Source of the DNA: an uncultured Gammaproteobacteria bacterium
GTDB lineage: Bacteria; Patescibacteriota; Patescibacteriia; JACQRZ01
Direction: 5' to 3'
NCBI GenBank assembly: GCA_964621085.1
Contig: CAZUKY010000001.1
Coordinates: 100,937-164,936, forward strand
Length of the DNA stretch: 64,000 nucleotides
Positions 7,911 to 53,252 of this stretch are shown one piece after another (the first letter of the stretch is position 1; each line of letters opens with the position of its first letter). The position numbers and the translations under genes were made by a program. The notes under the pieces were generated by a model that was given only the letters and a program-made list of their open reading frames with translations, had not been told where the DNA came from and ran no database searches.

Positions 7911-7970
7911 ACCACCAGGTGCTCACGCGTGCTCTATTAACATCTGATCGTTTTTCCCAAGCCTCCTTGC

Positions 7971-8117: not shown

Positions 8118-8150
8118 GAAAAAAGTCATTCGCACGAATGACTTTTTTCT
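8118..8150. terminator. bidirectional terminator (A-run, agtcattcg-cac-cgaatgact, T-run)
   Basis: between tRNA-Thr(+) and the ftsB-like gene(-). Confidence 0.6.
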
Positions 8151-8173
8151 ATTGCGCTATGTCCACTCTACCA

Positions 8174-8581
8174 CTAAAACTTCCGGTGAGCAAAAAAGTA
8201 ATCCCACCACTGCTGCGTATTTGACGCCCCTTCGGATACTGCTGCTGAAATCGCTTTCTGTGGGGTGGCATTTTTGGCTACCGGCTTTTCCGCGCTCTCG
8301 GGCGGCGCGCCCTCGATAATGACCGCTTGCTCCCCTTTCTTTTGCATACCCAGCTTGATGCGCGCCTCGCGTTCCGCGAAATAGTCCGTCTCAAGAAATT
8401 GGCTAAGTTCTTTGAGTTTTTGCTGGTTCGTCTCCAGAGAGCGGATCTCTTCTTCAAGATTCGCAATATTCTGATGGGTTCCGTAATTCACATACACGAT
8501 CTTGCTGAACGCAACAAAGAGCAACGCGAGAACCGCGATGCCGACAAGAAAAAACCAACGGGATGAAATTGCAGTACGCAT
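8174..8581 (-). CDS. septum formation initiator family protein (FtsB/DivIC-like)
   Basis: short cytoplasmic N-terminus, one TM helix (WFFLVGIAVLALLFVAF), coiled coil (IANLEEEIRSLETNQQKLKELSQF); start placed at MRTAISS (8581) to avoid a 64-nt overlap with the upstream gene; the track ORF extends to 8671. Confidence 0.6.
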   Translation of the reverse strand: MRTAISSRWFFLVGIAVLALLFVAFSKIVYVNYGTHQNIANLEEEIRSLETNQQKLKELSQFLETDYFAEREARIKLGMQKKGEQAVIIEGAPPESAEKPVAKNATPQKAISAAVSEGASNTQQWWDYFFAHRKF

Positions 8582-8606
8582 AGGAAAACGGGGGCGCTTT
8601 GGAGTG

Positions 8607-9206
8607 CTATGACCAATTCGGAGGATCCTGTTGCTTAAGCGGTAATATTTTCCGTTCAAAATTTTCAGCATCCGAACATCCCTCAGACGTCTCTCCTGTC
8701 GCGCGCCGCGCAGTCTTTGCCGAGGAGACGCATCGCGAAACCACGCTCAGCAATTCCTGGGGCCGGAAAACGGCGGTTATCGTGAACGACCCGCGCGTTG
8801 TAAACAACGAACAATGGATATCGCCGTAGCCGAAAAGCGTCGGGAACACGCCCTTTGCGTCATAGGAAAGCTCGTTGATGTTTTCAAGAAGCACTTCATG
8901 GACTTTTTTCCGGAAAATGCCCAGGCGGTGAATACCGAGAAGACGCCGATCCGTCAGAAGATAGACGCTTCCGTACCATCGCGAGAGGATCGAAAGAAGA
9001 AAAAGCGAATCAAGCGCCGCCACCCCCAAGAAAAAACCGACGCCGAGCGGCCCAAGCGAAACGAGCGGAAAGAGAAATAAAAAGAGAGCGACAAGAATAA
9101 GCATGGCCGGCGTCGCGAGCACGAGTGAACGGACCGTACGGGTGCGAATCGCGGCAACTATTTTTTCATCCGCATCAAGGGATATTTTTTCGGTAAAAAA
9201 CGGCAT
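8607..9206 (-). CDS. membrane protein with bacterial PH (YdbT/DUF304-like) domain
   Basis: two TM helices followed by a PH-like beta-rich domain; 199 aa. Confidence 0.45.
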   Translation of the reverse strand: MPFFTEKISLDADEKIVAAIRTRTVRSLVLATPAMLILVALFLFLFPLVSLGPLGVGFFLGVAALDSLFLLSILSRWYGSVYLLTDRRLLGIHRLGIFRKKVHEVLLENINELSYDAKGVFPTLFGYGDIHCSLFTTRGSFTITAVFRPQELLSVVSRCVSSAKTARRATGETSEGCSDAENFERKILPLKQQDPPNWS

Positions 9207-14427: not shown

Positions 14428-16047
14428 TTACCGGTGGTTTCCTGTAATGAAGCAGTATTCATTTTTTTTCATCTCTTCTTCTCTCAATTCTCTAAGCACC
14501 CTATACCGTTCAAATAACGCTGTATCCGCCTTCCCGGAACCTAGCGGATTATAGCCGTTTTCCAATTCCTCAAAATCAGTGTATCCATCGCCATCCGAAT
14601 CCTTTTTGTTCAGTTGTGTCCCAAGTTCAGATTCCATCCAGTCAGGCAATACATCTGAATCAGTATCCCGAGTCCGCTCTGCGTACTCATCACAAGAATA
14701 TTCATTTTTGGGAGCATTTGTCACCTCATCCATTTCTGGTATCTCATCACTGCCGCCGATCGAGAGGCCGCCACCGAATAACGAACCCATGACCTCTTCG
14801 ATACTTTTTGCGCCTTCCGGAGCATCGATAGTTACCGGTGTATTGAACTTGCTATTGGTCTGCCGCAACGAAATATCCGCGGTTACGGGAAACTCCTCTG
14901 TCTTTGGAACGATGAATGAAACCTTATACTGGTACGGATAGTAATCGCGCTTGCCGACCCAGAGCTCAACGCGGATCGGCTTGTCAGCAGGCATGTACTC
15001 CTTGATGAACTTTTCAATCGCCTGCCGTTCGTCGGGTTTCAGCTCCTCTTCCGAGAGGATCTGCTTGATCCGCTCGAAATACTTCAGCACTCCTTCCTGA
15101 TACAGCTCGAATACCAAGTGGTGCGTGGAGACGCCGGAGAGCTTTTCGTTGCCGCGGCTTAATGCATAATACCGCTCTTTCAGAAAGAGTTCGCGGATCT
15201 GCTTTTCCTTCTCTTCCGGGAGCCCTTCGATGCGCGAATCAAGTTCGCCCTCACCGAGTTTTTCCGCCTCCTTATCCAGATCGTCAAGATCGCCGAGTCT
15301 GATCCAGATATTTTCAAGAACACTCAGGTCAAAAAAACCAAAACTTGGAAGCTGCTTTGCGCTCGCATAAGCCACATTCTCGACAAGGCGAAACTCGATG
15401 CCAAGAAGGACATTGAGCGACGTCTCGCCTTCCGAGCGCAACTCGGGCTGCTTTGCCGACTGATCCTCCGCAAAGTTCATGTTCATTGTAAATTTCGGCT
15501 TTTCGCGATCGGTCGCATCGACAACACCTGCACTTCTGACCAGAAATGTCTTGCTTTTGCTCTCTTTCTCCTTTTCAGCGCCTTCTTGAGCTTCTTCTGC
15601 ATCTTCCAGGCCGCCGAGTGCGAGAAGAGAAAGCTCGTCAAGGCCGGTGACGACGGCGCGAATCTCCCCGTTGTACTCGTACGTCTTGATAGAATCCGCC
15701 CGCTCGACAACAGATGCTAAGATGCGCTCCGGTGTAAGGTAAAAATATCCGTAGGCAAAGTATCCCCCCACACCGATAGCGGCAAGACCGACGACGATCG
15801 CTGTAATAATACCGATGAGTTTTCCGGGCGACCGCCTTTCTTCCTGCTGATCGAATGTCGACAAAATATCGTGGCGATTTTCTGTCAACGGAGCGTCGTA
15901 ACTCGGTTCGGCTTCCTGCCCGGAACCGTACTGATACGTATCACCGGCTGGCGTACTTGGCTCGGACGGATTTTGCGACGCGTCTGACGCATCGGACGAA
16001 TATTCTTCGTTCATATTAAAAACAATACATACTATCCTTTTTCCCAA
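14428..16047 (-). CDS. hypothetical surface protein with N-terminal TM anchor and C-terminal thrombospondin type-3-like Asp-rich calcium-binding motif
   Basis: TM LIGIITAIVVGLAAIGVGGYFAY; C-terminal DSDGDGYTDFEELENGYNP. Confidence 0.5.
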   Translation of the reverse strand: MGKRIVCIVFNMNEEYSSDASDASQNPSEPSTPAGDTYQYGSGQEAEPSYDAPLTENRHDILSTFDQQEERRSPGKLIGIITAIVVGLAAIGVGGYFAYGYFYLTPERILASVVERADSIKTYEYNGEIRAVVTGLDELSLLALGGLEDAEEAQEGAEKEKESKSKTFLVRSAGVVDATDREKPKFTMNMNFAEDQSAKQPELRSEGETSLNVLLGIEFRLVENVAYASAKQLPSFGFFDLSVLENIWIRLGDLDDLDKEAEKLGEGELDSRIEGLPEEKEKQIRELFLKERYYALSRGNEKLSGVSTHHLVFELYQEGVLKYFERIKQILSEEELKPDERQAIEKFIKEYMPADKPIRVELWVGKRDYYPYQYKVSFIVPKTEEFPVTADISLRQTNSKFNTPVTIDAPEGAKSIEEVMGSLFGGGLSIGGSDEIPEMDEVTNAPKNEYSCDEYAERTRDTDSDVLPDWMESELGTQLNKKDSDGDGYTDFEELENGYNPLGSGKADTALFERYRVLRELREEEMKKNEYCFITGNHR

Positions 16048-39878: not shown

Positions 39879-40349
39879 TTGCGGGACGGCCCATCCCTAA
39901 TCTCTCCCTCGAGCGGAAGTAATACCAACCCGCTCAGAGCGTCCTTTATTGTACGACGATGTGGAGGACGTGCAGTGGCTCAATGCGAGATTTACGATAG
40001 CCCCGGAATGCGAGATACCTTGCAAACGGTCCTTGGTACTACCGAGGGTATTTGCGACGCTATCCTTATCAATGCCCACTATACTGCCAGCGGCACGCGA
40101 AGAATTTCCAGTCTTCATGGATTAGACATCGCCCTCAAGCTGCTTGAAAATAAAAGGGATGATCGCGTCATTATCATTTACAGCTTCTTCAGGCCAAGTG
40201 ACCACACCCTTATGGAAGATTCCAGATATAAGCAACTCCAAAAATGCAGCCGGGTTATTTTTACGGAGTTTCCCCTTATTACCGAGGCATTCGTCCCTAT
40301 CCTCAAAGAGGCGAAAAAGCGTCGGGCAAGGCGTTCATCCTCTAAGTAG
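39879..40349 (+). CDS. hypothetical protein
   Basis: ORF only; start uncertain (internal M at MRDTLQ). Confidence 0.3.
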   Translation: MRDGPSLISPSSGSNTNPLRASFIVRRCGGRAVAQCEIYDSPGMRDTLQTVLGTTEGICDAILINAHYTASGTRRISSLHGLDIALKLLENKRDDRVIIIYSFFRPSDHTLMEDSRYKQLQKCSRVIFTEFPLITEAFVPILKEAKKRRARRSSSK

Positions 40350-40423
40350 GTTACTTCAGTGCCGTCCGGCGGTTCTTGCCGGCGGCGCTTTTTACACTCC
40401 ATCGCATCGATACGATAAAATTT

Positions 40424-40975
40424 TTATAAACAAATCCTTCTTAGCGCCTTTCTCAATTCGCCGTGATGTGGGAGTGTATGTTCGACGAGCTTCCAGAACC
40501 TTTGCGAGTGGTTGAATTCTTTCAAATGACAGAGTTCATGCACGACGATGTAATCGATAAGTTGAAGCGAGAGATGGACGATGCGATAGTTGAAGTTCAA
40601 ATTTCCGCTCCGCGAGCAGCTACCCCACCGCGTGCGCTGGTTTCTAATCGCAATCCTGCCGATCGCAAAACCGTAAAAACCGTTGAAGTACTCAATGCGC
40701 GAGCGCACTAAGGAAAGAGCATCATGACGCAGATGTTCATACTCTTCTCGAGATCTCTGCGATAGTCCCAGTGCCTTGAAAAAATTGATTTTGCTGACAA
40801 TCCAATCGATTTTCTTTGCGACAATTTCCTCTATACGCATAGCAGGCACGCGAGTCGGTTGCGTGACAAAAACAGCCCCATCGCAACTCACCGAAATGCG
40901 CACATGCTTTGCCCTTGCATTCTTGCGAACCGTATAGGAAATAGTCTGATCATGCGCTTGGATCGTTTTTTTCAT
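40424..40975 (-). CDS. YgjP-like (DUF45/M48-related) metal-dependent hydrolase
   Basis: C-terminal HELCHL zinc motif. Confidence 0.7.
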   Translation of the reverse strand: MKKTIQAHDQTISYTVRKNARAKHVRISVSCDGAVFVTQPTRVPAMRIEEIVAKKIDWIVSKINFFKALGLSQRSREEYEHLRHDALSLVRSRIEYFNGFYGFAIGRIAIRNQRTRWGSCSRSGNLNFNYRIVHLSLQLIDYIVVHELCHLKEFNHSQRFWKLVEHTLPHHGELRKALRRICL

Positions 40976-41003
40976 ACCATTTCAGAATATCATCGAAAGC
41001 ATA

Positions 41004-41047
41004 TTTTTTTAAACACAAAACCCAACCTTCCGGTTGGGTTTCGCGTT
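41004..41047 (-). terminator. terminator hairpin cccaacc-ttcc-ggttggg with T-rich tail directly 3' of tRNA-Gln(CTG)
   Basis: near-copy at 1166..1208. Confidence 0.55.
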
Positions 41048-41118
41048 CTGCGGGACTAGGATTCGAACCTAGATAGCGTGATTCAGAGTCACGAGTCCTG
41101 CCATTAGACGATCCCGCA
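41048..41118 (-). tRNA. tRNA-Gln (anticodon CTG)
   Basis: identical to tRNA-Gln(TTG) outside the anticodon arm (stem CGTGA/TCACG, loop CTCTGAA). Confidence 0.85.
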
Positions 41119-41162
41119 TCGCTTGGATAGTATACTCTTTTTCTTGGAAAAAATCAAGGGGC

Positions 41163-42272
41163 TTATACGTTCGCTTCTTTCACATCCGGCTTGACCGCTT
41201 GGCAACTGCGTACGATTGCCATCTCAAGCGGCAGCTGGGGTATGGTGAACCATCGGGCATCCCTCTGTGCCGTCGCAAAGGCGTCGATAATACGAAGAAT
41301 ATGCTCTTCACTCAAGCGTTCGGCCAGCGCCGCCGTTCGCTGACGCGACTGCTCGCCGCTCTCCCCGACCGCCTCTAACCCGTTTTTGATAAGTAATATA
41401 TCACGAAAGTAATCGATGAGGTCTGTCGTAAAGACGCCGAAATCAATCCCGTTTTCAATCAGGGCAGATACGGCAGCCAGGGCTTCCTGCTGCCGTCCCG
41501 CGACAATATCTTCGGCAAGCTGTAGCACGTACTCCCGATTCGATAGCGGAAGAATAAGCGAGGCAAGCTCCCGGTCGATCTTTTTCTCATGAAGCGCAAG
41601 CACTTGGCCCAGGAGACTTTCCGCATCGCGCTCGCATCCGCCAGAGAGGCTAATGATCTCATTGAGCACATCCGCGTCAACGTCTTTTTTCTCGGCGACA
41701 ATTATTTTTGCCAGCCGGGCGCGCATATCCTCCGGCTTGATCTTCTTAAAATCGAACCGCTGGCAGCGGGAAACGATTGTTGCCGGAACTTTGTGCAGCT
41801 CGGTTGTTGCAAGAATGAAGAGCACATGCGACGGCGGCTCTTCGAGCACTTTCAACAAGGCGTTGAATGCCGAGATCGAGAGCATGTGCACCTCATCGAT
41901 GATAAATACTTTGTACCGCAAGCCGCTGCTTGCGACGCGCGAGGCAGCGATGATGTTTTCGCGGACGTTATCAACCCCGGTGTGCGATGCGGCATCGATC
42001 TCGATGATATCCATGGATCGCCCGTCCAAAATCATTGCGCAGACATCGCAATCATTGCATGGCTCGCTTTCGGCCTCGCTGCGCTTGAGGCAGTTGACTG
42101 CGCGCGACAGGATCCGCGCCGTAGTGGTCTTGCCGACGGCTCGCGGTCCGGAAAAAAGATACGCATGCGTAAGCACTCCGCGTGCAATCTCGTTTTGCAA
42201 CGTCGTTTTGACGTGCTCTTGCCCTGCAATATCCGCAAAGGTGAGCGGACGATACTTTCGATACAATGACAT
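41163..42272 (-). CDS. dnaX: DNA polymerase III gamma/tau subunit (short form)
   Basis: HAYLFSGPRAVGKTT, FIIDEVHML, SRCQRF sensor. Confidence 0.85.
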   Translation of the reverse strand: MSLYRKYRPLTFADIAGQEHVKTTLQNEIARGVLTHAYLFSGPRAVGKTTTARILSRAVNCLKRSEAESEPCNDCDVCAMILDGRSMDIIEIDAASHTGVDNVRENIIAASRVASSGLRYKVFIIDEVHMLSISAFNALLKVLEEPPSHVLFILATTELHKVPATIVSRCQRFDFKKIKPEDMRARLAKIIVAEKKDVDADVLNEIISLSGGCERDAESLLGQVLALHEKKIDRELASLILPLSNREYVLQLAEDIVAGRQQEALAAVSALIENGIDFGVFTTDLIDYFRDILLIKNGLEAVGESGEQSRQRTAALAERLSEEHILRIIDAFATAQRDARWFTIPQLPLEMAIVRSCQAVKPDVKEANV

Positions 42273-42288
42273 ACTGCTCGCGCGTGTC

Positions 42289-43149
42289 CTAATATTTCTT
42301 GATGATATTTTCTACGGCGCCCCATCGGCTCGCCCGTCCGGCAGGCACCAACAGCACGACCTCATCTCCCGGCAAGCCCTTGTAATACGTGACGCTTGCC
42401 GTCAGAACGCGCCATCGATGATCCGATGACCGGACAAAGTACTCGCCGCTGCCCTCCACTTCCAAGTATCCGATGGCGCGACGGCGCTCGATCGGATGAA
42501 TCTGCTTGTAGATAAACGAGCCATTATGCGCGATCGTCAACTTCATCCCATCACCCTCCACAAGCTTTGACTTTGAAGCGTAATTCGGTGGTATACTGTA
42601 CTGTTTGCCTGCCGTGTCGCGCATATGCTGCCCATCAAAAATACCCTCGACAACCGTTTCAGATGGCGCGTATGGCAGTGATTGATTCGATACCGCATCG
42701 GATGCGCGCGCTGCCGCATGCTGCTCTATAGGCATATGCGTACTACCCCCTCCGGTCTGCGTGCGCGTAAGGATTCCCAGGACACGCTCGCATGCGGACT
42801 TGAGCGACTCGACGGCTGTTTTCAGTTCGTGTGATGTTTGGTCGGAATCTGACGATACCGCACGATCGCCTTCCCTCTGAGCGGAATCCGCTTCGGGATC
42901 TTTTTTTTCAGGCTGTACGGTTCTGATTGCCGTGTCAAAAAGCGTCGATGCGAGCATTTCGAGAGAGTCGTCGGCTTTTTGCGTCGAATCGCGGGACGGC
43001 ATGCCCTGCGCCCCGTGAGGGTGCGGATACAAGTATGACATAGCGTTGCCGAAACCCGCGGCCATGCGGGTTTCGCTTTTTATTTTCGTTTTCCTTTTGA
43101 TTTTTTCTTTTTCTTTCCCTACCGTACCACCTTTCGCTGTCGATTTCAA
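42289..43149 (-). CDS. hypothetical protein with conserved C-terminal beta-rich domain
   Basis: 286 aa; Lys-rich N-terminus, low-complexity middle; 3-nt gap to the ATPase gene upstream. Confidence 0.45.
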   Translation of the reverse strand: MKSTAKGGTVGKEKEKIKRKTKIKSETRMAAGFGNAMSYLYPHPHGAQGMPSRDSTQKADDSLEMLASTLFDTAIRTVQPEKKDPEADSAQREGDRAVSSDSDQTSHELKTAVESLKSACERVLGILTRTQTGGGSTHMPIEQHAAARASDAVSNQSLPYAPSETVVEGIFDGQHMRDTAGKQYSIPPNYASKSKLVEGDGMKLTIAHNGSFIYKQIHPIERRRAIGYLEVEGSGEYFVRSSDHRWRVLTASVTYYKGLPGDEVVLLVPAGRASRWGAVENIIKKY

Positions 43150-43152
43150 GCC

Positions 43153-45666
43153 TTACCAACTCTCGCCGCCGAGCTTTGAACGTTCGAGAATCTCAGCCTC
43201 CACGAGCGACCGATCGCGGCCGTATTTCAAGCGGGAAAGCTGCCGGATTGCTGCTGCGATCTTCGGATCGCCAATAGGCGGCGGCAGCGTCGCCATGTTA
43301 AAGGGTCGTGCAGCGGCATTATCGATCATGAGGCGGATATACGCTGTCCGCTGGGCAATATTCATCACATCAAACTCGTTGAAGACCGGCGCCATCTGCT
43401 TTGCGATGATTTCCGAATCATCGACGCCAACGCGGAACGCTATAATGCTGCCGACGTTTCCAAAAACCGCATCGCGCACCTTGGTATCGCCGGCCTTTGG
43501 CATCAGCTGCGCGACGAACTGATGTCCCAAAATAAGATTAAGCCGGTACTTGCGCGCTTCAGACAGGATAGTCGCGATGCTGTCGGTGATGAAGTTCTGG
43601 AACTCGTCGATATAGAGAAAGAAGTCGTGCCGATCTTTTTCATGCATGTCGGCCCGCGCTAAGGCGGCCATCTGAAGCTTTGTCACAATAATAAGACCCA
43701 AAAGATTGCTGTTCATCTCGCCGATCTGGCCCTTGGACAGATTTACCAAGAGAATCTTTTTCTTGTCCATGATCTCGCGGAAATTGAACCCGGAACGCGC
43801 CTGGCCGATGATATTGCGGATCATGTTGTTCTCAATGAAGCGACCGATTTTTGACACCAAATACGGCAGCATCTCGCCTTTGGTCTGGCCCGATGTCTGC
43901 GGTAGCTCCTTTTCCCAAAATGCCCGAATGATCGGATCGGTCACTTTTTGCAGCATGTGCTGCTGGAACTCCTTGTCGGTCAGAATGCGCGGTATCTCGA
44001 CGATGGTATTCGGATCATCCGGATGTGCCATGAGCGTGAGCATGGCGTTTCTCATGTAGTGCTCGAACATCGGCCCGATCATGGACGGGTCGGTCACCAG
44101 ACGGTAAAAAATCGCGATCATCTCTTGCGCGACGAAGTCCTTCTCCTCCTCCGTGCTCGCCTCGAGCATGTTCAACCCGACCGGACGCTCAACATCTGCG
44201 GGCTCGAACAGAATCACGTCATCGGCGCGTTCCGGCGGAATATTTTCCAAAATGGTCTGCAAATCCTGGCCGTGCGGATCGATATAGCAGCAGCCATGCC
44301 CGTTTCGAATATCTTGGACCATCATATTGAGCATGATGGTCGACTTTCCGACGCCGGTCATACCGATGACATAGACGTGACGCCGCCGGTCGGCCGGAAG
44401 CATGCGCACCAACTGCTTCTTGCCGCGGTAATTCGTCTCGCCGAGAATGATGCCCTCGGACGGCAGGTTGTGCGGCGGCGGTGCCGATCGCGCCTTGAGC
44501 CAGTCGATATTCGGCGTTTCCGTACTGGAAAGCGGCATATGATACAGGCTCGCGAGTTCTTCCGTATTCAGAACGATCACGCGCTTCTCATCGAAATTGC
44601 GATACAGCGCGTTGCGGATCATCTTGGACGCAGAAAAGTACTTCTGCTTTCGAAAATTAATGCCGGATTCTGGCCCCATGTACTGTGCAAAGGCGTTGGT
44701 AATATTGAAAAGATGCATCTTTGCGACATGCGCGTCATCCGCGACTGCGAGGATGCGGATATTCGTCTCAAAACCGACCTTCGAGCTTTTTTCCTCCATT
44801 GCCTTTATCAGCTCTTGCTCGAATGGCGAAAGCTTCGGCGAGCTGGCCGCCTCTTGCTGCTCTTTCAGTTTTTCCTTCTGGCCGGAAAAAACCGCCTTCC
44901 CGATCCAGCTGAACATGCTTTTGCCGTGCATCGCCTCTTCGAGACTCTTGCCTTTTTGCATATCGCGCGCAACCTTCTGCCCTCGCGCGCGCCAGCCCTT
45001 TTTCGCCGTCCGTATCATAATCTGGATCGCCGCTCCTTGCGATTCCTCGACCTTGCTGAGCGCATTGGTAAGTCCATTCAGAGGATCGGAATCCATTTTT
45101 TTATAGGATTTCAACGGAAAGATCCATGATTTTGTCAGAAGCAGCGGAGCGATCTCGATGACCCCGCGCGGACGGAAGATGTTATAATCGTCAACGACAG
45201 ACAGCTCGGCAGACGGGTATTGCGCGTGAAGCTGCTGCTCGAAAAATGCATGCAGATGCTCAGGGACGACCGCATAAAACTTGATCAGTCCCCCGCTTGC
45301 GACAATTTCAAGCGCGATCTGGTCGTCGCGCCCCAGAAAAAAAGAGCGCAGCTTGTTGCGGGATTTGACGTTCCCCAGCGTCATGTAAAACGCCTCAGCC
45401 ACGGCAATGAGTTCTTTGTAGTTTTTCTGGGATGATTTTTCCTCTTCTTCTTTTTTTGCGCCTTCCTTGGGCACGCGGATTTGGATAATCTTTTTATTGA
45501 GCGCAAGCGGAATCGCGAAGATGCGATGCAGCGCCGTTCGGACAATAATAAGCAAAAGCCACACCGCTGCAATACTTACCGTGCCGGCGAATGCAAAGAA
45601 AAAAAGCTCATTTTGCGCAATGAACTCAGCAAAGCTCGGCAGATTTTCCACAATCTGCTCATCCAT
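43153..45666 (-). CDS. FtsK/HerA-superfamily ATPase, type IV secretion VirB4/VirD4 (coupling protein)-like, with N-terminal TM
   Basis: 837 aa; Walker A GMTGVGKST, DPHGQ, Walker B FFLYIDEFQNF, C-terminal all-alpha region; N-terminal TM helix. Confidence 0.55.
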   Translation of the reverse strand: MDEQIVENLPSFAEFIAQNELFFFAFAGTVSIAAVWLLLIIVRTALHRIFAIPLALNKKIIQIRVPKEGAKKEEEEKSSQKNYKELIAVAEAFYMTLGNVKSRNKLRSFFLGRDDQIALEIVASGGLIKFYAVVPEHLHAFFEQQLHAQYPSAELSVVDDYNIFRPRGVIEIAPLLLTKSWIFPLKSYKKMDSDPLNGLTNALSKVEESQGAAIQIMIRTAKKGWRARGQKVARDMQKGKSLEEAMHGKSMFSWIGKAVFSGQKEKLKEQQEAASSPKLSPFEQELIKAMEEKSSKVGFETNIRILAVADDAHVAKMHLFNITNAFAQYMGPESGINFRKQKYFSASKMIRNALYRNFDEKRVIVLNTEELASLYHMPLSSTETPNIDWLKARSAPPPHNLPSEGIILGETNYRGKKQLVRMLPADRRRHVYVIGMTGVGKSTIMLNMMVQDIRNGHGCCYIDPHGQDLQTILENIPPERADDVILFEPADVERPVGLNMLEASTEEEKDFVAQEMIAIFYRLVTDPSMIGPMFEHYMRNAMLTLMAHPDDPNTIVEIPRILTDKEFQQHMLQKVTDPIIRAFWEKELPQTSGQTKGEMLPYLVSKIGRFIENNMIRNIIGQARSGFNFREIMDKKKILLVNLSKGQIGEMNSNLLGLIIVTKLQMAALARADMHEKDRHDFFLYIDEFQNFITDSIATILSEARKYRLNLILGHQFVAQLMPKAGDTKVRDAVFGNVGSIIAFRVGVDDSEIIAKQMAPVFNEFDVMNIAQRTAYIRLMIDNAAARPFNMATLPPPIGDPKIAAAIRQLSRLKYGRDRSLVEAEILERSKLGGESW

Positions 45667-45677
45667 ATCTTAGAGCG

Positions 45678-46199
45678 CTAAATATCGAGATCTTTAAGGC
45701 TGAGGATCTTTTCTGCCTTGATTTTTGCCGCGCGCTCGACAAAAAATTTATTGATGCCCGGCACCAGCAAAAGCCACTCGCGAATCATGAGAATAACTGT
45801 GCGCAGTTTTATTTTTGCGCTTGCGACCATTGTTTCAAGCTTTCCGGCAAGGCGCTCCCCCTCGTCTCGAAACTGTTTGCGCTGTTCGGAGGAAAGCTGG
45901 CTGTACATATAAGAAAGGTCTTCCTCAAGCACCCGCTCGATATCAAGGCGCAGCTCTGTCTTTTCTTGAGTGACGGGTCGGGGCAAGGTTTGGGCCAGTG
46001 GCGAAATAGCTGGCGCAGATCCGTCTTCTTTTTCGGTTGGCGTACTCGAGTGCCGCTCAGGCACTGGACGGACCTCCCCCTTCTCTGGCGGCAATGGTTC
46101 TGCTGTCTCAAGAAAGTGCTCGGCTTCCTGCTGGGGAATGGAAAGCTTTTCGTTTTCGTCTGACATAGATGAAGTCTTACTGAGCAGGTCCGGCTGCAC
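45678..46199 (-). CDS. hypothetical protein
   Basis: 173 aa; overlaps the upstream membrane-protein gene by 23 nt, suggesting co-translation. Confidence 0.4.
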   Translation of the reverse strand: MQPDLLSKTSSMSDENEKLSIPQQEAEHFLETAEPLPPEKGEVRPVPERHSSTPTEKEDGSAPAISPLAQTLPRPVTQEKTELRLDIERVLEEDLSYMYSQLSSEQRKQFRDEGERLAGKLETMVASAKIKLRTVILMIREWLLLVPGINKFFVERAAKIKAEKILSLKDLDI

Positions 46200-46734
46200 G
46201 CCGCCGAACCAGCGCCATCGCGAAAAGCGGTGCGATCATCCAAAATGTCCGCGCAATATCGCCGGAAAAATAGTTTATCGAAAAATCGCTTGTATAAACC
46301 GTCGGCCCGATCAAGAGAAGAATGCTACTGATAAAAAGTCCGACTTGCACAAAACTCAAAAGAAACGAGTGCAGATACGAGTGGCCGACCTCAGCACGGA
46401 GAGACATCCGGTGGGACAGAAGCCCGTAGAGGACGAGAAATATACCGACAAAAATGCCGATGCGCCATTTGTAGACATCGTCCGCGCTCAGCGTAGCGAG
46501 GGCATTCGTTATCATCGGAGTAGCCAAAACGATCGCCAATGACGTATAGACAGACAACAGCACGACGGCGATCCGCTCGCGGCTGACAAAAAAGGAGTAC
46601 GCGATCGTCGCAAAGAGAAAGGAAAGAATCAAAAATGCATCCCAGGAAGGCGTCGCGATGGCGCCCTGCAAGGATGACGGATCAAAAGAAATGCTTACAA
46701 GTGAAAACATAGGGAACATAAAACAACCCTTCAT
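46177..46734 (-). CDS. polytopic membrane protein (5-6 TM)
   Basis: 185 aa, hydrophobic throughout. Confidence 0.5.
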   Translation of the reverse strand: MKGCFMFPMFSLVSISFDPSSLQGAIATPSWDAFLILSFLFATIAYSFFVSRERIAVVLLSVYTSLAIVLATPMITNALATLSADDVYKWRIGIFVGIFLVLYGLLSHRMSLRAEVGHSYLHSFLLSFVQVGLFISSILLLIGPTVYTSDFSINYFSGDIARTFWMIAPLFAMALVRRRAAGPAQ

Positions 46735-46842
46735 GCTCTAGTATACCATAGCACGGTGGCGCAGTGAATGAGACAAAAGTGCGCATGCTCGCTGCGGCGA
46801 GCATGCGCACTGCAGATTGAAATGCGGCAGGGCTCTTTCCTC

Positions 46843-47724
46843 CTACTTCCCCTTCTGTGCGACAATTGTGCCGCTCAACAGTACGCTATCATCAACACTG
46901 GCAACAAAGGGTACATCTGGGATGCCGATACCGAAGTCTTTTCGGGAGACGGTCGCGGACACGGTTGCCGTAAGTCTCTCCAGCGACTCGAGTCGCAGAT
47001 CTCCGCGAAACGCAGCCGGCCGCGTGACGCCGGCAATGGTAAGCTGCCCGCGAATCGTTACCGGAACCGAAACACCCACTGAGAGCGTCTCTGAAAGACC
47101 CTCGATAGCCTGCATGCGGAAGGTAATCATCCGATTTGCCTCGTTGTTTGTCTTGAGGATAAAAAGCCGAATTGCATTATCGCGTCCCCCGCTATCGGTT
47201 GCAAGAGTACTCGCGTCAATTGCAATGTTTTTTAGGGATGCCGTGCGTGCGGCATTCGCAAGGTCAACAGAGACCTCGCCGGTGATTTTTCCTGTCGTGC
47301 CAACCGCGGTGAAGTCCTCGCCGCGCAAGACCTCTTTGACAGCGAACTGCACGCGCGACTCGTCCGAGACGATTGTAAAACGCGAAATTTCTGATTTCGG
47401 CAGTGAAGGTGCCGACTGCGGCTGCAAGGACGCCGTAGGCGAAGATGATGCCGGCTGATTTTTTGCTGGCGCTTGTAAAGGCTCATCAGTGCTTGGTTTT
47501 TCCGAAATGGTTTCAGAAGGGGTGCTCGTCTCCTCCTCAGCAATCTCGACCTGCTGAGTCGCACTCTCACCTGCACTTTCCCCATTTTCCAAGCCTCCGG
47601 TAATGGCAGTCTCGCCTTTTTGAGGTACCGCCGGTTTCACAGCGTTGTTATAGAAGAGTCCAGCACCAATCAAAACGCCGATAACCGCGATCACACCGCC
47701 TACGAGATTTTTATTCATACGCAA
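46843..47724 (-). CDS. YceI-like domain protein with N-terminal TM and Ser/Pro-rich linker
   Basis: C-terminal 170 aa: FTIVSDESRVQFAVKEV...GGRDNAIR...FGI pattern typical of YceI. Confidence 0.55.
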   Translation of the reverse strand: MRMNKNLVGGVIAVIGVLIGAGLFYNNAVKPAVPQKGETAITGGLENGESAGESATQQVEIAEEETSTPSETISEKPSTDEPLQAPAKNQPASSSPTASLQPQSAPSLPKSEISRFTIVSDESRVQFAVKEVLRGEDFTAVGTTGKITGEVSVDLANAARTASLKNIAIDASTLATDSGGRDNAIRLFILKTNNEANRMITFRMQAIEGLSETLSVGVSVPVTIRGQLTIAGVTRPAAFRGDLRLESLERLTATVSATVSRKDFGIGIPDVPFVASVDDSVLLSGTIVAQKGK

Positions 47725-47871
47725 ATATTATGAATCATCGCTCATGTATAGTACGCGATTCCCGAATACTGAACAAGTCAAAAATCAAGAACGGCCGAAC
47801 GGCCGTTCCTTTTGAATTAATTTGGAATTATCCTCCGATTGCCCTAGTCTTTCCTCCTCCTCTGCTCGGCC

Positions 47872-49980
47872 TCATTGGCACTGCGTTCCCGCCGTTTTCT
47901 TCGTATAGATAGCGAAGTTCGGATAGGGCGATGTCATCTCAAACCCGCCGAAGGAGATCCAGCGCGCTCGATACTCGTCATAACACTTTTCAGGATCGTT
48001 CTGCTGGGCCGGTGTCTGCGTTTCCACATATCCTTTCCATGGCGCCACGTCCCATCTGCTCGGATCCCTGTCGCTAGGACAGCGCGCAAGGTTCGGCTGC
48101 CAACTCGTCAGTGTTGTCTTATCGGCCGGATTCGTTTCATATACGTACAGCGGTTCGCACTTCTGCTGCGAAAGCGTCGCAGGTTTTTCGATGCGGTATG
48201 ACTGAAGCTGTACGGCGCCTTCGTACCCATAATACCTGTACAACTGCTTATCAGCCAAGTTTCCGTTATCGGCTCGTATATAATTAAGTGTCAATCTGCC
48301 GTTTGCCGGAAGCGAAGCGAGCCCCTTCTCGTCCACTCGTCCGAATACGTAAACAATTAGAGGTACACCCGTTGGCAGATCAGAAAAAATCGACTCTCCG
48401 ACTTTCTCAAATGCAAGACGGTTCCCAGTCGGGCGCTCATATTTTCGGAATGTTCCAACTTCTCTATTTCCCTCATAAACCGTAATTGCGACCTCCTCGA
48501 ACGCCGCTAATTCTTTCGCCTCGGATTCAGTAAAGAACATGCCGCGTACATTGCGCGCATCCTTTGGTAGCGTCATAGTAAAGGATCCGAACATCACGGT
48601 TAGCGGCACCGAGTCAACCCGGGCACTGATTGTGCCTGAGGTATCGACGCTGACGGAGATCCGCTCAGGTAAAGATGCGGTCGGAGAATCCTTCAGACTC
48701 ACGCGATACTGCTGCAAGAGCACCGGTTGTTCAAGTGTATATTTTTTACGATCTCCCAACGCGTATATGCCGCTCAACTGAAGTCTTCCTGCCGACGGAA
48801 GGGACTTTGCTATAGCAGGACTTGTTGATGCGACAACCTCAAAAAGAAGCTGAGTTTGCGTCGGAAGTCCTTTCAGTATTTCATTAACTTTTTGGCCGGC
48901 GATGGTGTCGAAGTGCAGCTTGCCGGAATCTGCCTGCCGCGTCCATATGGCACTGCTTCCGATGCGCTCCCCAGTTTTAGCGTTTTTCACATTCAGGGTA
49001 AAGTACTGGAAAGCGGAAGGAAAAGCGGTCTTTGTTTCCGGTTCAAAGGTTACGTCTACTACCCGATCGACTGAGCCTGGAAGCGTGACCAGTGCGCGCG
49101 CAAGCGGCACGGATGCGCCTTCCTTGCCCTTCAGTTCAATCTCGGTAGTCAGATCTTCTTCGGTTTTCGGCTTGACGCTGATGCGCTCATCTCGGGAAAT
49201 AGTTACCGTGAAATCCTGATTCGGACGATCCTTAGTCTGGAATTTTTGCGATTGGTTGGAGCCAAGGATGCTGAATACTGTCGACTTGCCCTCGAACGAA
49301 CCCGACTTACTGTACACGTCGGCGATCAAACTGAATGTCAGTGGCGTTTCCGTTGGAAGGCCCTTGTAGAGCACTTCCTTTTTCGTAGTCGTATAATCGA
49401 AAATGACATCCGCTTCAGTGTTTTTCAGGGCAGAAATCGGCTGGATAACGATATCCTCTCCTATTATTTCTCCGAACTGATTCTGTGCGCGCAGCCGATA
49501 TCCTGTGACATATGGCAGCTGAAGCGGGCTCGATCCGGAGCTGTCATGGAGCTGAAAGATGACTGAGTTGATGAAGTAGACGCCGGCCGGCAGTGTTACT
49601 TCCGTGCGCGCAAGAGTTGCGGAGGATAGATCGCCAAGAAAATTTTCCGGCCTTAAGGTAGTGTCAATAGAACGCTCCTTCGCAATAACCCTGATCGGTT
49701 CAACAGTTTTTACGCATTGTTTGAGTTTCTCTTGGTACTCGTACCCAGTTTCGCACGTACAGGTTCGGGTATCACTGACGATCAATGACTCCTTGCACGG
49801 CAGGCAGATGGACTGGCCGTACTCCCCGCAGACATCGGCTATTTTGCTTGGCATCGTAGAATTCATGGCAGACGAGAGAAGCGCAGCGGCAACGCCCGCC
49901 GCGCCAAACCCGACAATCGCAAGGGTCTTTACCCGCGTCCCGGAGAGTATTCCGACCTTGGTGGCCGTTCGTTCGCTCAT
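47872..49980 (-). CDS. large secreted multidomain hypothetical protein (702 aa) with N-terminal Cys-rich module
   Basis: TM/signal anchor; CGEYGQSICLPCK...CTCETGY...C EGF-like spacing; C-terminal Cys pairs. Confidence 0.5.
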   Translation of the reverse strand: MSERTATKVGILSGTRVKTLAIVGFGAAGVAAALLSSAMNSTMPSKIADVCGEYGQSICLPCKESLIVSDTRTCTCETGYEYQEKLKQCVKTVEPIRVIAKERSIDTTLRPENFLGDLSSATLARTEVTLPAGVYFINSVIFQLHDSSGSSPLQLPYVTGYRLRAQNQFGEIIGEDIVIQPISALKNTEADVIFDYTTTKKEVLYKGLPTETPLTFSLIADVYSKSGSFEGKSTVFSILGSNQSQKFQTKDRPNQDFTVTISRDERISVKPKTEEDLTTEIELKGKEGASVPLARALVTLPGSVDRVVDVTFEPETKTAFPSAFQYFTLNVKNAKTGERIGSSAIWTRQADSGKLHFDTIAGQKVNEILKGLPTQTQLLFEVVASTSPAIAKSLPSAGRLQLSGIYALGDRKKYTLEQPVLLQQYRVSLKDSPTASLPERISVSVDTSGTISARVDSVPLTVMFGSFTMTLPKDARNVRGMFFTESEAKELAAFEEVAITVYEGNREVGTFRKYERPTGNRLAFEKVGESIFSDLPTGVPLIVYVFGRVDEKGLASLPANGRLTLNYIRADNGNLADKQLYRYYGYEGAVQLQSYRIEKPATLSQQKCEPLYVYETNPADKTTLTSWQPNLARCPSDRDPSRWDVAPWKGYVETQTPAQQNDPEKCYDEYRARWISFGGFEMTSPYPNFAIYTKKTAGTQCQ

Positions 49981-50082: not shown

Positions 50083-51111
50083 CTAGTGGATATCCTTCGG
50101 ATCCATGTCTACCCATTCGGCGACGACCTCCTTAATGTGCGCAACGCCGACGAGGGGTTCTTGATCCGGCGGACAGGTTTTGCACGCCCGCTTGGCTGCA
50201 TGATGTAAAATGGCTGCCGCATGCTCGTGACGCGAACCGCGCTGGACATTCACTTTTGCCGCCGCCTCGTCCATCACATCGATCGCTTTGTCGGGCAGGC
50301 GACGGCCTTTTATGTATTCTTGGGATAGCCGTACCGCAGCACGGATCGCCTCGTCTGCGATTTTCACCCCATGATACTCCTCGTAGTTCCCTTTCAGGCC
50401 TTGCAGGATATTGATTGACTCATCAACAGTCGGCTCATCAACCAGCACAACCTGAAACCGTCGATCCCAGCTTTCGTCCGGCTGAATATAGGACTCGTAC
50501 TCCTTCTGGGTCGTAGCGCCCACAAGCTGCAAATCACCACGCGAGAGCGCCGGTTTGAGAATATCCGAAAGATTCACGGCGCCTTCCGCCCCTTTTGCCT
50601 GAGTAACCGTATGGATTTCATCAATAAAAAGGATGATTGTGCGTCCGCTTTTGCGAATGTCGCTCACGATCGCTTTGATGCGCTGCTCAAAATCCCCTCG
50701 ATACTTCGTCCCGGCAAGCAGCTCGGAGACCTGGAGCAAGAGCACGCGTTTATGACTCAGGAGCTCCGGAATGTCCCCGTCGGCGATGCGCTGCGCAAGA
50801 CCCTCGACGATCGCCGTCTTCCCGACGCCGGGCTGACCAAGCAAGATAACGTTATTTTTCGTGCGCCGGGAAAGGATCTGAATGACGCGGGTTATCTCCT
50901 CCTCGCGCCCGATGACCGGATCAACGCCGCCTTCGCGCGCAAGTGCTGTGAGGTCGGTCGCATACAGGTCGAGCGTTTGCGTCGCCGAGCCGCCGATCCG
51001 GAATGCGGATGGGGACGGTGACTTTTTGAAATATAAAAAAGCCGCTGTTCCGATGCTAATGACAGCGACCCATTTGAGAATGTCCGCCAAAGCCCACGGT
51101 GCTTCTGCCAT
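50083..51111 (-). CDS. membrane-anchored Clp/Hsp100 D1-only AAA+ ATPase
   Basis: N-terminal TM; ClpA/B D1 motifs IGREEEITRVIQILSRRTKNNVILLGQPGVGKT, ILFIDEIHTV, sensor; ends where the D1 small domain ends; no middle domain or D2. Confidence 0.65.
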   Translation of the reverse strand: MAEAPWALADILKWVAVISIGTAAFLYFKKSPSPSAFRIGGSATQTLDLYATDLTALAREGGVDPVIGREEEITRVIQILSRRTKNNVILLGQPGVGKTAIVEGLAQRIADGDIPELLSHKRVLLLQVSELLAGTKYRGDFEQRIKAIVSDIRKSGRTIILFIDEIHTVTQAKGAEGAVNLSDILKPALSRGDLQLVGATTQKEYESYIQPDESWDRRFQVVLVDEPTVDESINILQGLKGNYEEYHGVKIADEAIRAAVRLSQEYIKGRRLPDKAIDVMDEAAAKVNVQRGSRHEHAAAILHHAAKRACKTCPPDQEPLVGVAHIKEVVAEWVDMDPKDIH

Positions 51112-51248: not shown

Positions 51249-53252
51249 ATGCGAGCAAAAATATCGGCGCTGCTGATTGCGGCGCTGTTGGTGCCGCAGG
51301 GCACCGCGTTTTCGGCAGAACATGCTGTCGAGACAACCCAGACACCTCCGGCAGAGAATGCTGCACCGCCGCAAGAGAGCATAGAAACCATAGAGAATAG
51401 TAAAGAGGATCACAGCCGCCTCAAAGAACAGGAACAGCGGCGATTTGATGACAAGCGCTTTGAGGGCGAACGGCGCCACGAAGACGATCGCCGGCGATCC
51501 GAAGAGCAAGAGCGGCAGCGCTTTGAACAAGACGAACAGCGTCGTGCCGAGGACGAACAACGCATGAACGAACGGCGATTTGAGGATATGAAGCGCAACG
51601 TGGAGCGTTTCATGCGCGATATTTCACGCATGGAACGGGAGGCAGAGCGAACGGCAAAACGCCTTGAGCGGTGCGAGTTCGGCATTCCGGCGGAACTGAC
51701 GAAGACGCTTGATACTGCAAAAGGCCTTGCCGAAAAGGTCAAAACGGCCAACTCGGCTGATGAGCTTGAGGATATCATGTTTGAGTTTGAGGATGTCGGC
51801 TACCTTATGGGAGAATGGGGGCGTCAGATGGGCCCCTTACAGCAGGTCTGTGAGATGCTAGGAAACGCCGATCGCGAGGTTCAACGACTCCTTCGCGAAC
51901 AGGATCGCATGGAGCAGCGAGCGAAACAGCAAAAAATCGATGCGTCTCTGATGCTTGGAAAACTGCGGGAATTATCTCGAAAAATGGAGGAAACGCTCGA
52001 GCGCGCCCGCTCACTGGCGCAAAAGAGCCCTGAGGATGCGGTATTTTTAATACAAGATGAGATATTTTTCCGAATGGAAGAGTATCACAACGCGCAACGC
52101 GGTCTGGAGATGGCCCTTGACCTGCGCCGCGGACTGCAAGATGCCGGAGGGGAGATCTGGGAGTTTAAAGCGCTCATTAAAGAATTGAAAGCGAAGAAAA
52201 AAGACACGACGCGCCTTGAGCGTCTTCTAGGACAAATGGAAGGAATCAAAGGAAAGCTTGATGGGATGGCACAGCGCTCAGTCGATCCAGACAGCGTCCA
52301 GCCCCTCATCGAAGAAGCCTTCGACCTCCGTGAGGAATTTGTCCGCCTGGCAAGCCACCTTGGCGGAGGAGCACGGTTCATGGACGAGAAGTCTGAAAAT
52401 GCAGATGAAGAGGACTTTCGCGTAGATCTGCCGTCAGGGTTTAAACCGTCTGCAAAAGCCCGTGCGTCGCGTGACGCGGAGCGATCGGGCGGTGGCGGTG
52501 GTGGAGCAGACGCCCAAGTTCAAGAAATCAAGGCAAAAGCCGAACTCCTTGCCGACAACCGCCTCGATGCGATTCTTTCGGAGCTGAAGCAGTTGCGTGA
52601 TCAAGTAAAGGAGCAGCAAGCGGAAATCAAATACCTGCGCACACTTACACAGGATTTCGCGCAGCTCAATGAACAAATGCAGACACAGCTGAATACATTT
52701 ATCACCTACGGTGTCGATGAGAACTCCAAGCGCCTTGGCGAGGGCGAGCGCGCCGCGGTGCTGCACTCGTACAAATCGGCATTCCAAGCATTGCCCGAAG
52801 ACGAGCGCGGTATCGAAGATGTCATTAAAATTGTCAACGGACGCTTTCCAAGTCAACGAAGCGGCGTAGCGGAAAAGCAGGCGAAGAAGTTTTTCCGGGA
52901 GATTTACAAGCGCGTCGCAAATATGGAAAACGAAAACGACAAGGCGGCCATCATGGTTATGGCGTACGGGTTGCGCCAAGCGGCGCAAAACCGTAACCTC
53001 GAGAGCGAAAAACGAGGCATTGAGACGTTCAAAAACATCTTCGGATACCTGCCCACCACGACCGAGGAATGGAACGCCATGCAGGCCATCACCTACTCCG
53101 GCGCCGTGCGGCGGCCGGATAGTGACAAGGACGGCCTGTCCGATGCTGATGAAAAGCTCATCGGGACCAACTCAGACAAACCCGATACCGACGGCGATGG
53201 CATTCCAGACGGCGACGAGGTCGATGAAGAATTCGATCCGCTCAAGAAATAA
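51249..53252 (+). CDS. secreted coiled-coil protein with C-terminal thrombospondin type-3-like calcium-binding repeats
   Basis: signal peptide, long E/R/Q-rich heptad region, C-terminal DSDKDGLSDADE...DTDGDGIPDGDE. Confidence 0.5.
   Translation: MRAKISALLIAALLVPQGTAFSAEHAVETTQTPPAENAAPPQESIETIENSKEDHSRLKEQEQRRFDDKRFEGERRHEDDRRRSEEQERQRFEQDEQRRAEDEQRMNERRFEDMKRNVERFMRDISRMEREAERTAKRLERCEFGIPAELTKTLDTAKGLAEKVKTANSADELEDIMFEFEDVGYLMGEWGRQMGPLQQVCEMLGNADREVQRLLREQDRMEQRAKQQKIDASLMLGKLRELSRKMEETLERARSLAQKSPEDAVFLIQDEIFFRMEEYHNAQRGLEMALDLRRGLQDAGGEIWEFKALIKELKAKKKDTTRLERLLGQMEGIKGKLDGMAQRSVDPDSVQPLIEEAFDLREEFVRLASHLGGGARFMDEKSENADEEDFRVDLPSGFKPSAKARASRDAERSGGGGGGADAQVQEIKAKAELLADNRLDAILSELKQLRDQVKEQQAEIKYLRTLTQDFAQLNEQMQTQLNTFITYGVDENSKRLGEGERAAVLHSYKSAFQALPEDERGIEDVIKIVNGRFPSQRSGVAEKQAKKFFREIYKRVANMENENDKAAIMVMAYGLRQAAQNRNLESEKRGIETFKNIFGYLPTTTEEWNAMQAITYSGAVRRPDSDKDGLSDADEKLIGTNSDKPDTDGDGIPDGDEVDEEFDPLKK

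Follow-up and report, generated by a model that had tools for sequence, protein, structure and literature searches.

The closest described relatives of the protein reported here are the orphan type IV coupling proteins (T4CPs) of the Patescibacteria. A survey of 3,035 genomes from this group recovered 5,713 homologues of VirD4-type T4CPs in 2,918 genomes and VirB4 in 2,417, with just 148 of the 5,713 T4CP homologues encoded near virB4; nearly every genome has about two orphan coupling-type ATPases, and the authors allow for an exaptation of these orphans to other functions (Quinonero-Coronel et al. 2025, PMC12102498). Here, we analyzed an 837-residue ATPase of this kind, encoded together with a small upstream protein, a downstream protein with predicted tandem OB folds, and dnaX, in a 64,000-nucleotide stretch of the genome of an uncultured member of the Patescibacteriota (contig CAZUKY010000001.1, positions 100,937 to 164,936; this whole stretch is the window in what follows). 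Among the FtsK/HerA-type motors, the ATPase falls in the coupling-protein (VirD4/TrwB) branch, as a domesticated member. Its family is already known, as the orphan T4CP of the Patescibacteria (PMC12102498) and as Pfam DUF8128: the orphan T4CPs of the survey and SEML1_0293 of S. epibionticum are of the same family as the window ATPase, with agreeing annotation names and Pfam content and a location far from virB4. As far as its text shows, the survey does not describe a VirB4-like N-terminal domain, a linkage to an OB protein and dnaX, or phage homologues. As far as the literature searched shows, three findings are new: the VirB4-like fold of the N-terminal domain, the conserved grouping of the ATPase with a tandem-OB protein and dnaX, and relatives on plasmids and in phages that have no membrane anchor.

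The ATPase and its parts lie in the window as follows (TM, transmembrane):

43153–45666, minus strand: ATPase, 837 residues, DUF8128 (PF26449) and TrwB_AAD_bind (PF10412), an orphan T4CP homologue
45541–45597, minus strand: TM helix of the ATPase, residues 24–42, FAFAGTVSIAAVWLLLIIV, hydropathy 2.5
44467–45498, minus strand: N-terminal domain of the ATPase, residues ~57–400, DUF8128, probably cytoplasmic, with a modelled fold like that of the VirB4 N-terminal domain
43156–44466, minus strand: T4CP-type P-loop motor of the ATPase, residues ~401–837
44341–44364, minus strand: Walker A, GMTGVGKS, at residue 435
43600–43620, minus strand: Walker B, FLYIDEF, at residue 683

By sequence, this is a coupling-protein-type motor that looks competent for catalysis. 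Pfam TrwB_AAD_bind matches residues 425–769 (E = 5.8e-10, 39 bits against a cutoff of 20.5) in an alignment that spans the region where the all-alpha domain of T4CPs is inserted, and a profile of the ATPase family searched against the PDB finds TrwB (1.8e-6) and DotL (1.3e-4), with HerA only at 0.058 and VirB4 absent among the matches. Besides the two Walker motifs, the protein carries DPHG (residue 463) and ARKYRLNLILGHQ (residue 704). TrwB has motifs that align with Walker A, DPHG, Walker B, and RK..L....HQ, and among 143 relatives Walker A is retained in 143, Walker B in 141, and E-A-R-K-Y in 142. Other models come less close: Pfam TraG-D_C and DUF87 remain slightly under their cutoffs (DUF87 with 20.5 bits against 23.2), the NCBIfam models of TraD/VirD4-like T4CPs are all far below theirs, TrbE reaches an E value of 0.054 only, and TIGR00929 is not among the matches listed at E ≤ 0.1. 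At the same threshold, the Pfam scan gave no match to FtsK_SpoIIIE, FtsK_gamma, 4TM, CagE_TrbE_VirB, or AAA_10. The original prediction, made from the letters of this stretch, had described the Walker A, DPHG, and Walker B motifs and the single N-terminal TM helix as they are found here, and its placement of the ATPase in the HerA/FtsK/T4SS branch (T4SS, type IV secretion system) can now be narrowed to a specifically coupling-protein-like motor; the FtsK_SpoIIIE and gamma-domain matches that it named as evidence to the contrary did not appear in the profile searches of the 837-residue protein.

The helix at residues 24–42 is the sole TM helix of the ATPase, is part of a long helix (residues 20–56) in the AlphaFold2 model, and has a counterpart in 138 of 143 Patescibacterial family members. 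A basic stretch follows it, which by the positive-inside rule suggests that the remainder of the protein lies in the cytoplasm. The model of residues 1–425, calculated from 61 sequences, reached a pLDDT of 88 and a pTM of 0.82, and a Foldseek search with its N-terminal domain placed 14 TrwK/VirB4 chains on top (E = 7e-7 to 4e-4, probability 1.0), followed by EccE3; on this modelled structure, the domain has the fold of the VirB4 N-terminal domain. The link is structural only, with no support at the level of sequence: in HHalign, the family profile gave no alignment with the TcpF/VirB4 protein of a Bacillus plasmid (probability 2%). PF26449 (DUF8128) is precomputed on an identical protein on record (P0001) and on all 120 homologues listed, and was not returned by our local Pfam scan of the window ATPase, such that the DUF8128 assignment rests on the precomputed annotation. 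A phmmer search with the domain against 1.84 billion representatives gave 1,912 clusters; among the matches listed, it is N-terminal in every full-length protein (~800–1,270 residues), and the shorter ones look fragmentary.

Given the structural match of the N-terminal domain and the T4CP-type motor, the ATPase appears to be a chimera in its plan, with a TM anchor, a VirB4-like N-terminal domain, and a VirD4/TrwB-like motor, so that the label "VirB4/VirD4-like" of the original prediction proves literally apt. This plan agrees with the inferred sister relationship of the VirB4 and VirD4 ATPases (PMC3548315), and bears on how the two split from their common ancestor. As in the T4CPs (VirD4/TrwB/TraD/TraG), to which the P-loop motor is matched by sequence, an N-terminal membrane anchor is present. 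T4CPs usually anchor through two TM helices. The window ATPase, in contrast, has one, followed by a folded domain of ~340 residues between anchor and motor, with Walker A at residue 435 rather than ~115 residues in as in TrwB, and it is chromosomal and vertically conserved, with neither relaxase nor mating-pair-formation genes nearby. With VirB4/TrwK, it has the modelled fold of the N-terminal domain in common, but neither a VirB4-family sequence match nor VirB3, VirB6, or VirB8 neighbors; by sequence, the motor is not a VirB4. FtsK/SpoIIIE proteins share the motor superfamily, the membrane anchoring, and the vicinity of replication and recombination genes, yet differ in the domains that had no match here (motor, gamma, and 4TM) and in the single TM helix of the window ATPase; an FtsK/SpoIIIE identity was rejected for lack of a motor or gamma match and because S. 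epibionticum has a canonical, essential FtsK besides its member of the DUF8128 family. A HerA (DUF87) helicase was rejected as well, as DUF87 scores below cutoff, the locus has no NurA-like neighbor of the ATPase, and the PADLOC models of HerA match the Walker A stretch weakly (E = 1e-4 to 5e-3 only).

Homologues of the ATPase are also found on mobile elements. A tblastn search of PLSDB gave 493 plasmids, in 41 of which the match spans 80% or more of the query and takes in the N-terminal domain; the hosts include Bacillus (211), Streptomyces (89), Staphylococcus, haloarchaea, and Sulfolobus, and the full-length matches cover 80–89% of the query at 20–30% identity, with E values down to 6e-58. 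On the Bacillus subtilis plasmid NZ_CP154917.1 (27.5 kb), there is an 885-residue homologue (681 aligned columns in HHalign, E = 1.3e-53). The next gene encodes a Replic_Relax protein, and the genes of TcpC, further conjugal-transfer proteins, and a TcpF/VirB4-type ATPase come after it; the homologue fills the coupling-protein slot of this Tcp-like conjugation locus. It should be noted that the plasmid is typed as "non-mobilizable" despite its TcpC, TcpF-like ATPase, and Replic_Relax genes. Among phages, PHROG 5156 matches residues 78–830 (E = 1e-80), and tblastn found 48 records, mainly of Bacillus phages (G gp156, CP-51, SPO1-like phages, 031MP002, D6E). The gene of 031MP002 (gp52, 6866–9022 of the extracted region) lies among genes for Gam-like, ERF, replisome-organizer, and helicase-loader proteins, and that of D6E (ORF23, 6806–9064) between a partition protein and an integrase. 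Some of the phage homologues (Bacillus, Geobacillus) are misannotated as "lipid A export ATP-binding/permease MsbA". The DUF87/"TraM recognition" ATPases of Bacillus, Streptomyces, and archaeal plasmids and the members of PHROG 5156 thus show full-length homology to the window ATPase, N-terminal domain included; the three that were inspected (the plasmid protein and those of D6E and 031MP002) have no TM helix and reside on mobile elements, whereas the window ATPase is chromosomal and anchored.

Three neighbors on the same strand form the recurrent surroundings of the ATPase:

45678–46166, minus strand: small partner protein, 162 residues; an identical 162-residue protein is on record (P0409)
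42289–43065, minus strand: OB protein, 258 residues; acidic disordered N-terminus, long helix, and two tandem OB barrels (42292–42663), as modelled
41163–42272, minus strand: dnaX, short gamma/tau clamp-loader subunit of 369 residues (NCBIfam PRK05563 3e-132, TIGR02397 8e-120)

The OB protein has at least 6,798 homologues, and all those listed are Patescibacterial "hypothetical proteins" with no Pfam family; searched by sequence against Pfam, NCBIfam, and the PDB, the protein itself gave no family match. In the alignment, the N-terminus is variable and acidic, the helix is conserved, and the C-terminal 120 residues are almost invariant, with the consensus EG.FDG..M...GK.Y..P.NYASKSKL..GD..KL...G.F.YKQ..P..R.R ... 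W...ASVTY.KG..GDE. The AlphaFold2 model shows a helix at residues 73–104 and two small barrels (residues ~135–258) with a pLDDT of ~97, that is, the coiled coil and two tandem OB folds of a partner that had been drawn as a 286-residue protein and put forward for structure prediction. The best solved matches of the barrels are the cold-shock domain/S1 parts of RNase R/II, the N-terminal domain of Rho, the OB domain of RsgA, IF1, and S17; the C-terminal domain is basic (isoelectric point 9.15), rich in invariant aromatic residues, and also has invariant basic ones. From the model, a binding of single-stranded nucleic acid, DNA or RNA, is a reasonable inference. The two five-stranded barrels resemble cold-shock/S1-type OB domains but carry an invariant NYASKSKL motif of their own, and the plan with a coiled coil and an acidic tail is confined to the Patescibacteria.

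The small upstream protein begins with 65 acidic, proline-rich, and probably disordered residues, followed by a conserved C-terminal domain of ~95 residues with the motif EWL.L.PG.N.FF.E.EAKIK.DKI; no TM helix is predicted in it (maximum hydropathy over 19 residues 1.38), and a word-indexed homologue search returned 6 matches only. Neither this protein nor the 185-residue membrane protein encoded upstream of it (46177–46734) matched a family in Pfam, NCBIfam, PADLOC, or PHROGs.

To compare gene order, we used 69 genome loci with an ATPase identity of 44–70% (Uhrbacteria, Magasanikbacteria, Falkowbacteria, and other Patescibacteria) and 80 more distant metagenome loci with an identity of 39–51%, amounting to 149 related loci. 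Of the more than 3,900 homologues of the ATPase, the closest come from Candidatus Uhrbacteria and other Patescibacteria, and the identical protein on record is encoded on a 239.6-kb NCBI contig. At the 69 loci, a gene of the 162-residue family lies directly upstream of the ATPase in 62, dnaX is found downstream on the same strand in 55, and an OB-protein gene stands between ATPase and dnaX in 43. The order of small gene, DUF8128 ATPase, OB gene, and dnaX was also recovered starting from the OB-protein homologues of Kerfeldbacteria and "Parcubacteria", and spans Uhrbacteria, Magasanikbacteria, Falkowbacteria, and Kerfeldbacteria; the group of the first three we take to be the GTDB class ABY1. 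Synteny is looser in the 80 distant loci. Among 94 loci with at least 3 kb of downstream sequence, dnaX lies within 4.5 kb in 55, an OB gene in 39, and both in 34. With so many homologues of the ATPase, and with neighbors that are syntenic in dozens of independent genomes, the association is more than chance.

This conservation of the neighbors, which the original prediction had made a test of its four-gene module, holds for a different set of genes than those it drew: the conserved core consists of the small protein, the ATPase, the OB protein, and dnaX. The membrane protein, which it described as a partner with 5–6 TM helices, was detected by tblastn in only 9 of the 69 loci, all of close Uhrbacteria-like relatives, and is not a general component; as a general channel partner it was rejected on this count and because the GtrA-like proteins that other loci encode gave no match to its profile. 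The absence of pilin, VirB6, and relaxase genes was seen correctly: relaxase, virB4, virB6, pilin, and integrase genes were not seen in the 64-kb window, nor T4SS genes, relaxase, VirB6, or pilin in the 149 related loci. A "minimal T4SS-like kit" is thus an overstatement, as nothing channel-like is conserved.

When 143 ATPases were grouped by identity into clades, with neighbors identified by Pfam, the surroundings were seen to vary. The clade of the window protein has the 162-residue family upstream and the OB gene and dnaX downstream; a Falkowbacteria-like clade has a 90-residue single-TM protein upstream and the OB gene, at times with dnaX, downstream; a third clade combines a different small-protein family with a downstream GtrA-like protein and dnaX; a fourth has yet another small-protein family upstream and a Xer-type recombinase and DivIC downstream; and a fifth has dnaE and aspS upstream and nothing recurrent downstream. 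Linkage to dnaX is seen again in four separate ATPase clades, and a same-strand small gene directly upstream of the ATPase is almost universal, although a single universal family of upstream partners had to be rejected: at least three families occupy the position, mutually without detectable homology (hmmsearch, hhalign). Two loci encode tandem paralogues of the DUF8128-type ATPase (L093, 242–6143, with an OB gene between them; L103, 5971–11021), which agrees with published counts of about two copies in each genome. A 342-residue protein encoded in the window at 50083–51111 (minus strand), with one ClpA/B-type AAA domain, AAA_lid_9, and by eye a hydrophobic N-terminus, has homologues within a few kb of the DUF8128 ATPase at five loci (L008, L009, L042, L087, L117).

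Our tentatively favored reading, which we would put somewhat short of an even chance, is that of a ring-forming, membrane-tethered translocase that derives from the coupling proteins of mobile elements and works without a relaxase. As a ring tethered to the membrane, the ATPase would spend ATP on moving nucleic acid, with single-stranded DNA the most likely substrate; its docking or regulation would fall to the VirB4-like domain and the small upstream protein, the tandem-OB protein would handle the single-stranded substrate on the cytoplasmic side, and cotranscription with dnaX would couple translocation to DNA synthesis. The link to DNA is drawn from the relatives, since the plasmid homologue adjoins Replic_Relax, phage homologues stand beside replication and recombination genes, and some chromosomal clades lie beside dnaE or beside xerC/D and divIC. 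We lean towards a role independent of the separately encoded Patescibacterial T4SS, because the T4SS genes of S. epibionticum are essential while SEML1_0293 is not, because T4CP homologues outnumber VirB4, and because the 149 loci hold no T4SS genes.

Several points weigh against this translocase. All of it beyond the architecture of the ATPase is inferred. At 21 of the loci dnaX is kept without the OB gene, whose function may be tied to dnaX or to neither neighbor; gene order among housekeeping genes can also persist by descent alone within one class. The spread of the upstream partner over at least three unrelated families weakens the idea of one conserved complex, the closest solved matches of the OB barrels are RNA-binding domains (RNase R, Rho, IF1, S17), such that the 258-residue protein might bind RNA, and the T4SS setting in which the plasmid homologue works favors a classical coupling role.

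The latter role is the best surviving alternative, possible though on the doubtful side: the ATPase may be a genuine coupling protein of a Patescibacterial T4SS encoded elsewhere, its N-terminal domain docking on VirB3, VirB8, or VirB4, with protein or DNA substrates delivered to a host cell and the 162- and 258-residue proteins acting as adaptors or chaperones. In structures of the R388 system, the N-terminal domain of VirB4 contacts VirB3 and VirB8, and a fold of this kind would suit docking; the motor, too, is T4CP-type by sequence, and a relaxase gene adjoins that of the plasmid homologue, which holds the T4CP position of a TcpC/TcpF locus. In addition, T4CP genes are often far from virB4, and VirB4 is present in 80% of Patescibacteria genomes (PMC12102498). 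However, T4CP homologues are more widely spread than VirB4 (96% against 80% of genomes), T4SS genes were found at 0 of the 149 loci, Bacillus phages carry homologues with no T4SS gene annotated in the inspected phage regions, and the T4SS of S. epibionticum, which is essential, does without SEML1_0293 and has no recognizable coupling or relaxase protein (Wang et al. 2023, PMC10633639).

SEML1_0293 of S. epibionticum has 921 residues, matches PF10412, PF12696, and PF01935 at residues 402–719, and is nonessential in transposon-insertion sequencing (Tn-seq) (PMC10633639 supplement). It stands in the order topoisomerase I (0296), hypothetical protein (0295), sigma factor (0294), and ATPase (0293) (PMC10633639 supplement), and a 930-residue Saccharibacterial DUF8128 protein, common in assemblies of public runs, is encoded in the order topA, sigma-70-region-4 protein, and ATPase; because of this shared gene order, SEML1_0293 is assigned to the DUF8128 ATPase family. 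On these grounds of orthology by gene order, SEML1_0293 is the Saccharibacterial DUF8128 orthologue, dispensable in Tn-seq. Two loci, L156 (4954–8793) and L159 (2857–7397), encode a sigma-70-region-4 protein of ~330–350 residues just ahead of the DUF8128 ATPase, and one of the two proteins has a HARE-HTH domain. L156 shares its gene order with S. epibionticum, and in Saccharibacteria such a protein takes the place that the 162-residue family has in Uhrbacteria-type lineages. S. epibionticum further encodes SEML1_0142, an essential "TraM recognition domain" protein of 1,019 residues, preceded by the small gene SEML1_0141 (139 residues), which received no insertions and scores as essential; gyrB and gyrA lie two genes downstream of this pair (PMC10633639 supplement). 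As a more divergent T4CP/FtsK-like pair, SEML1_0141/0142 may be a functionally important paralogue. The window ATPase may be an orthologue of SEML1_0293 or may stand nearer to SEML1_0142 in its role.

Less likely still is an FtsK-like membrane pump for chromosome segregation, dimer resolution, or cell division. Such a pump would account for the neighbors dnaX, dnaE, xerC/D, and divIC, and it has in its favor the motor superfamily shared with FtsK, the membrane anchor, the conserved dnaX linkage, the Xer-type recombinase and DivIC downstream in one clade and dnaE upstream in another, and the near-universal chromosomal presence of the family. Against it stand the missing FtsK_SpoIIIE, gamma-domain, and 4TM matches, and the plasmid and phage relatives, which point to DNA handling on mobile elements. 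In addition, S. epibionticum possesses a canonical FtsK with motor, gamma, alpha, and 4TM domains (SEML1_0096), essential in Tn-seq (PMC10633639 supplement), whereas its DUF8128 orthologue is dispensable.

That there is no functional module, the ATPase being a decaying remnant of a conjugative element or part of a MADS- or HerA-like defence system beside an unrelated OB protein, dnaX, and membrane protein, is very improbable: the PADLOC mad8 match (1.4e-16, residues 427–758), the weak HerA matches, the abundance of the family on plasmids and phages, the poor conservation of the membrane protein, and the clade-wise variation of the upstream partners would fit, but the conservation data largely refute it already, with thousands of full-length homologues retaining intact motifs and a syntenic position among core genes over several candidate phyla. 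A defence system of the MADS/HerA type was rejected, the mad8 match being partial, other MADS genes giving no match, and the three partner proteins having none in PADLOC; a remnant of an integrated conjugative element was rejected on the conservation and on an even composition (GC 0.50–0.54 around the locus, as in the rest of the window), with no integrase, relaxase, repeat, or compositional anomaly seen.

A bolder version of the translocase, in which the DUF8128 ATPase keeps an ancestral VirB4/VirD4 plan and forms, with the tandem-OB partner and a clade-specific adaptor, a device of the Patescibacteria core that imports or exports single-stranded DNA or RNA independently of relaxase and T4SS, is an unlikely one. 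Patescibacteria account for much of bacterial diversity and are unable to synthesize nucleotides themselves, and such a device, if real, could for example provide a route for nucleic-acid acquisition or exchange with the host cell apart from ComEC-dependent competence. For the translocase in general, a vague annotation is turned into testable hypotheses, namely a DNA-stimulated ATPase, nucleic-acid binding by the OB protein, and a role of SEML1_0293 in DNA transfer. The front half of an orphan ATPase has a modelled VirB4-like domain, in one large lineage its gene keeps company with dnaX and with a gene for what is probably a single-strand-binding protein, and its TM-less relatives work beside a relaxase on a plasmid and within phage replication modules.

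The remaining features of the gene run are the following:

46811–46778, minus strand: terminator of the upstream YceI-like gene, with a 15-bp stem; upstream boundary
46768–46740, minus strand: promoter-like site TTCACT-17-TATACT, with TG upstream; a consensus match only
46177–46734, minus strand: polytopic membrane protein, 185 residues, at least four strongly hydrophobic helices, family matches none
43050–43075, no strand assigned: perfect 10+10 palindrome (CGAAACCCGC..GCGGGTTTCG) within an 87-nt A-rich spacer, enclosing the ATG of the 258-residue gene
41048–41118, minus strand: tRNA-Gln(CTG), final gene on the strand, followed after a 72-nt gap by the gene of a YgjP-like metallopeptidase

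All four minus-strand open reading frames (ORFs) of the original prediction are present where it placed them, with 185, 173, 837, and 286 residues, of which the second and fourth are maximal ORFs. The 173-residue ORF (45678–46199) opens at a GTG at 46199, and its likelier start is the ATG at 46166, giving 162 residues; the 286-residue ORF (42289–43149) opens at a TTG at 43149, and its likelier start is the ATG at 43065, giving 258 residues as in a protein on record (P0121). With these starts, the spacings are 10–11, 11, and 87 nt (A-rich, with the palindrome), and 16 nt to dnaX. Because two starts are shorter than the maximal ORFs, the spacings are not uniformly 3–12 nt: the tight packing that had been claimed holds for the first three genes (10–11 nt), and that between ATPase and OB protein was an artefact of the maximal ORF. 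The gene run extends past 42289 to dnaX and tRNA-Gln on the same strand; terminator-like sites were not found ahead of either, and tRNA-Gln probably closes the transcription unit that includes dnaX. At the other end, the promoter-like −10 element ends 6 nt ahead of the first ATG of the membrane-protein gene, so that the mRNA would be leaderless or the true start would be one of the ATGs 15–24 nt downstream. On the plus strand, the palindrome reads as an intrinsic terminator, with a hairpin followed by a T-run, and no plus-strand gene converges there; because of the T-run it is terminator-like for antisense transcripts, and its role may lie in terminating such transcripts or, as a hairpin, in controlling translation. 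An Rfam scan of 40000–48000 found the tRNA alone and no riboswitch or leader.

The rest of the window is ordinary chromosome, with ORFs that by eye resemble ftsEX, pyrG, mreB, frr, and dnaK/dnaJ/grpE and Pfam matches to PRPP synthetase, an M17 peptidase, YceG, and glycosyltransferases. Three ORFs of 702, 789, and 539 residues (47872–49980, minus strand; 10092–12461, plus strand; 14428–16047, minus strand) have no Pfam match, and the 702-residue product, with a hydrophobic N-terminal segment, looks secreted or surface-exposed. A 667-residue protein (51249–53252, plus strand) combines a signal-like N-terminus with a very long, helical-looking region rich in E, R, and K and a C-terminal bacterial TSP3 repeat.

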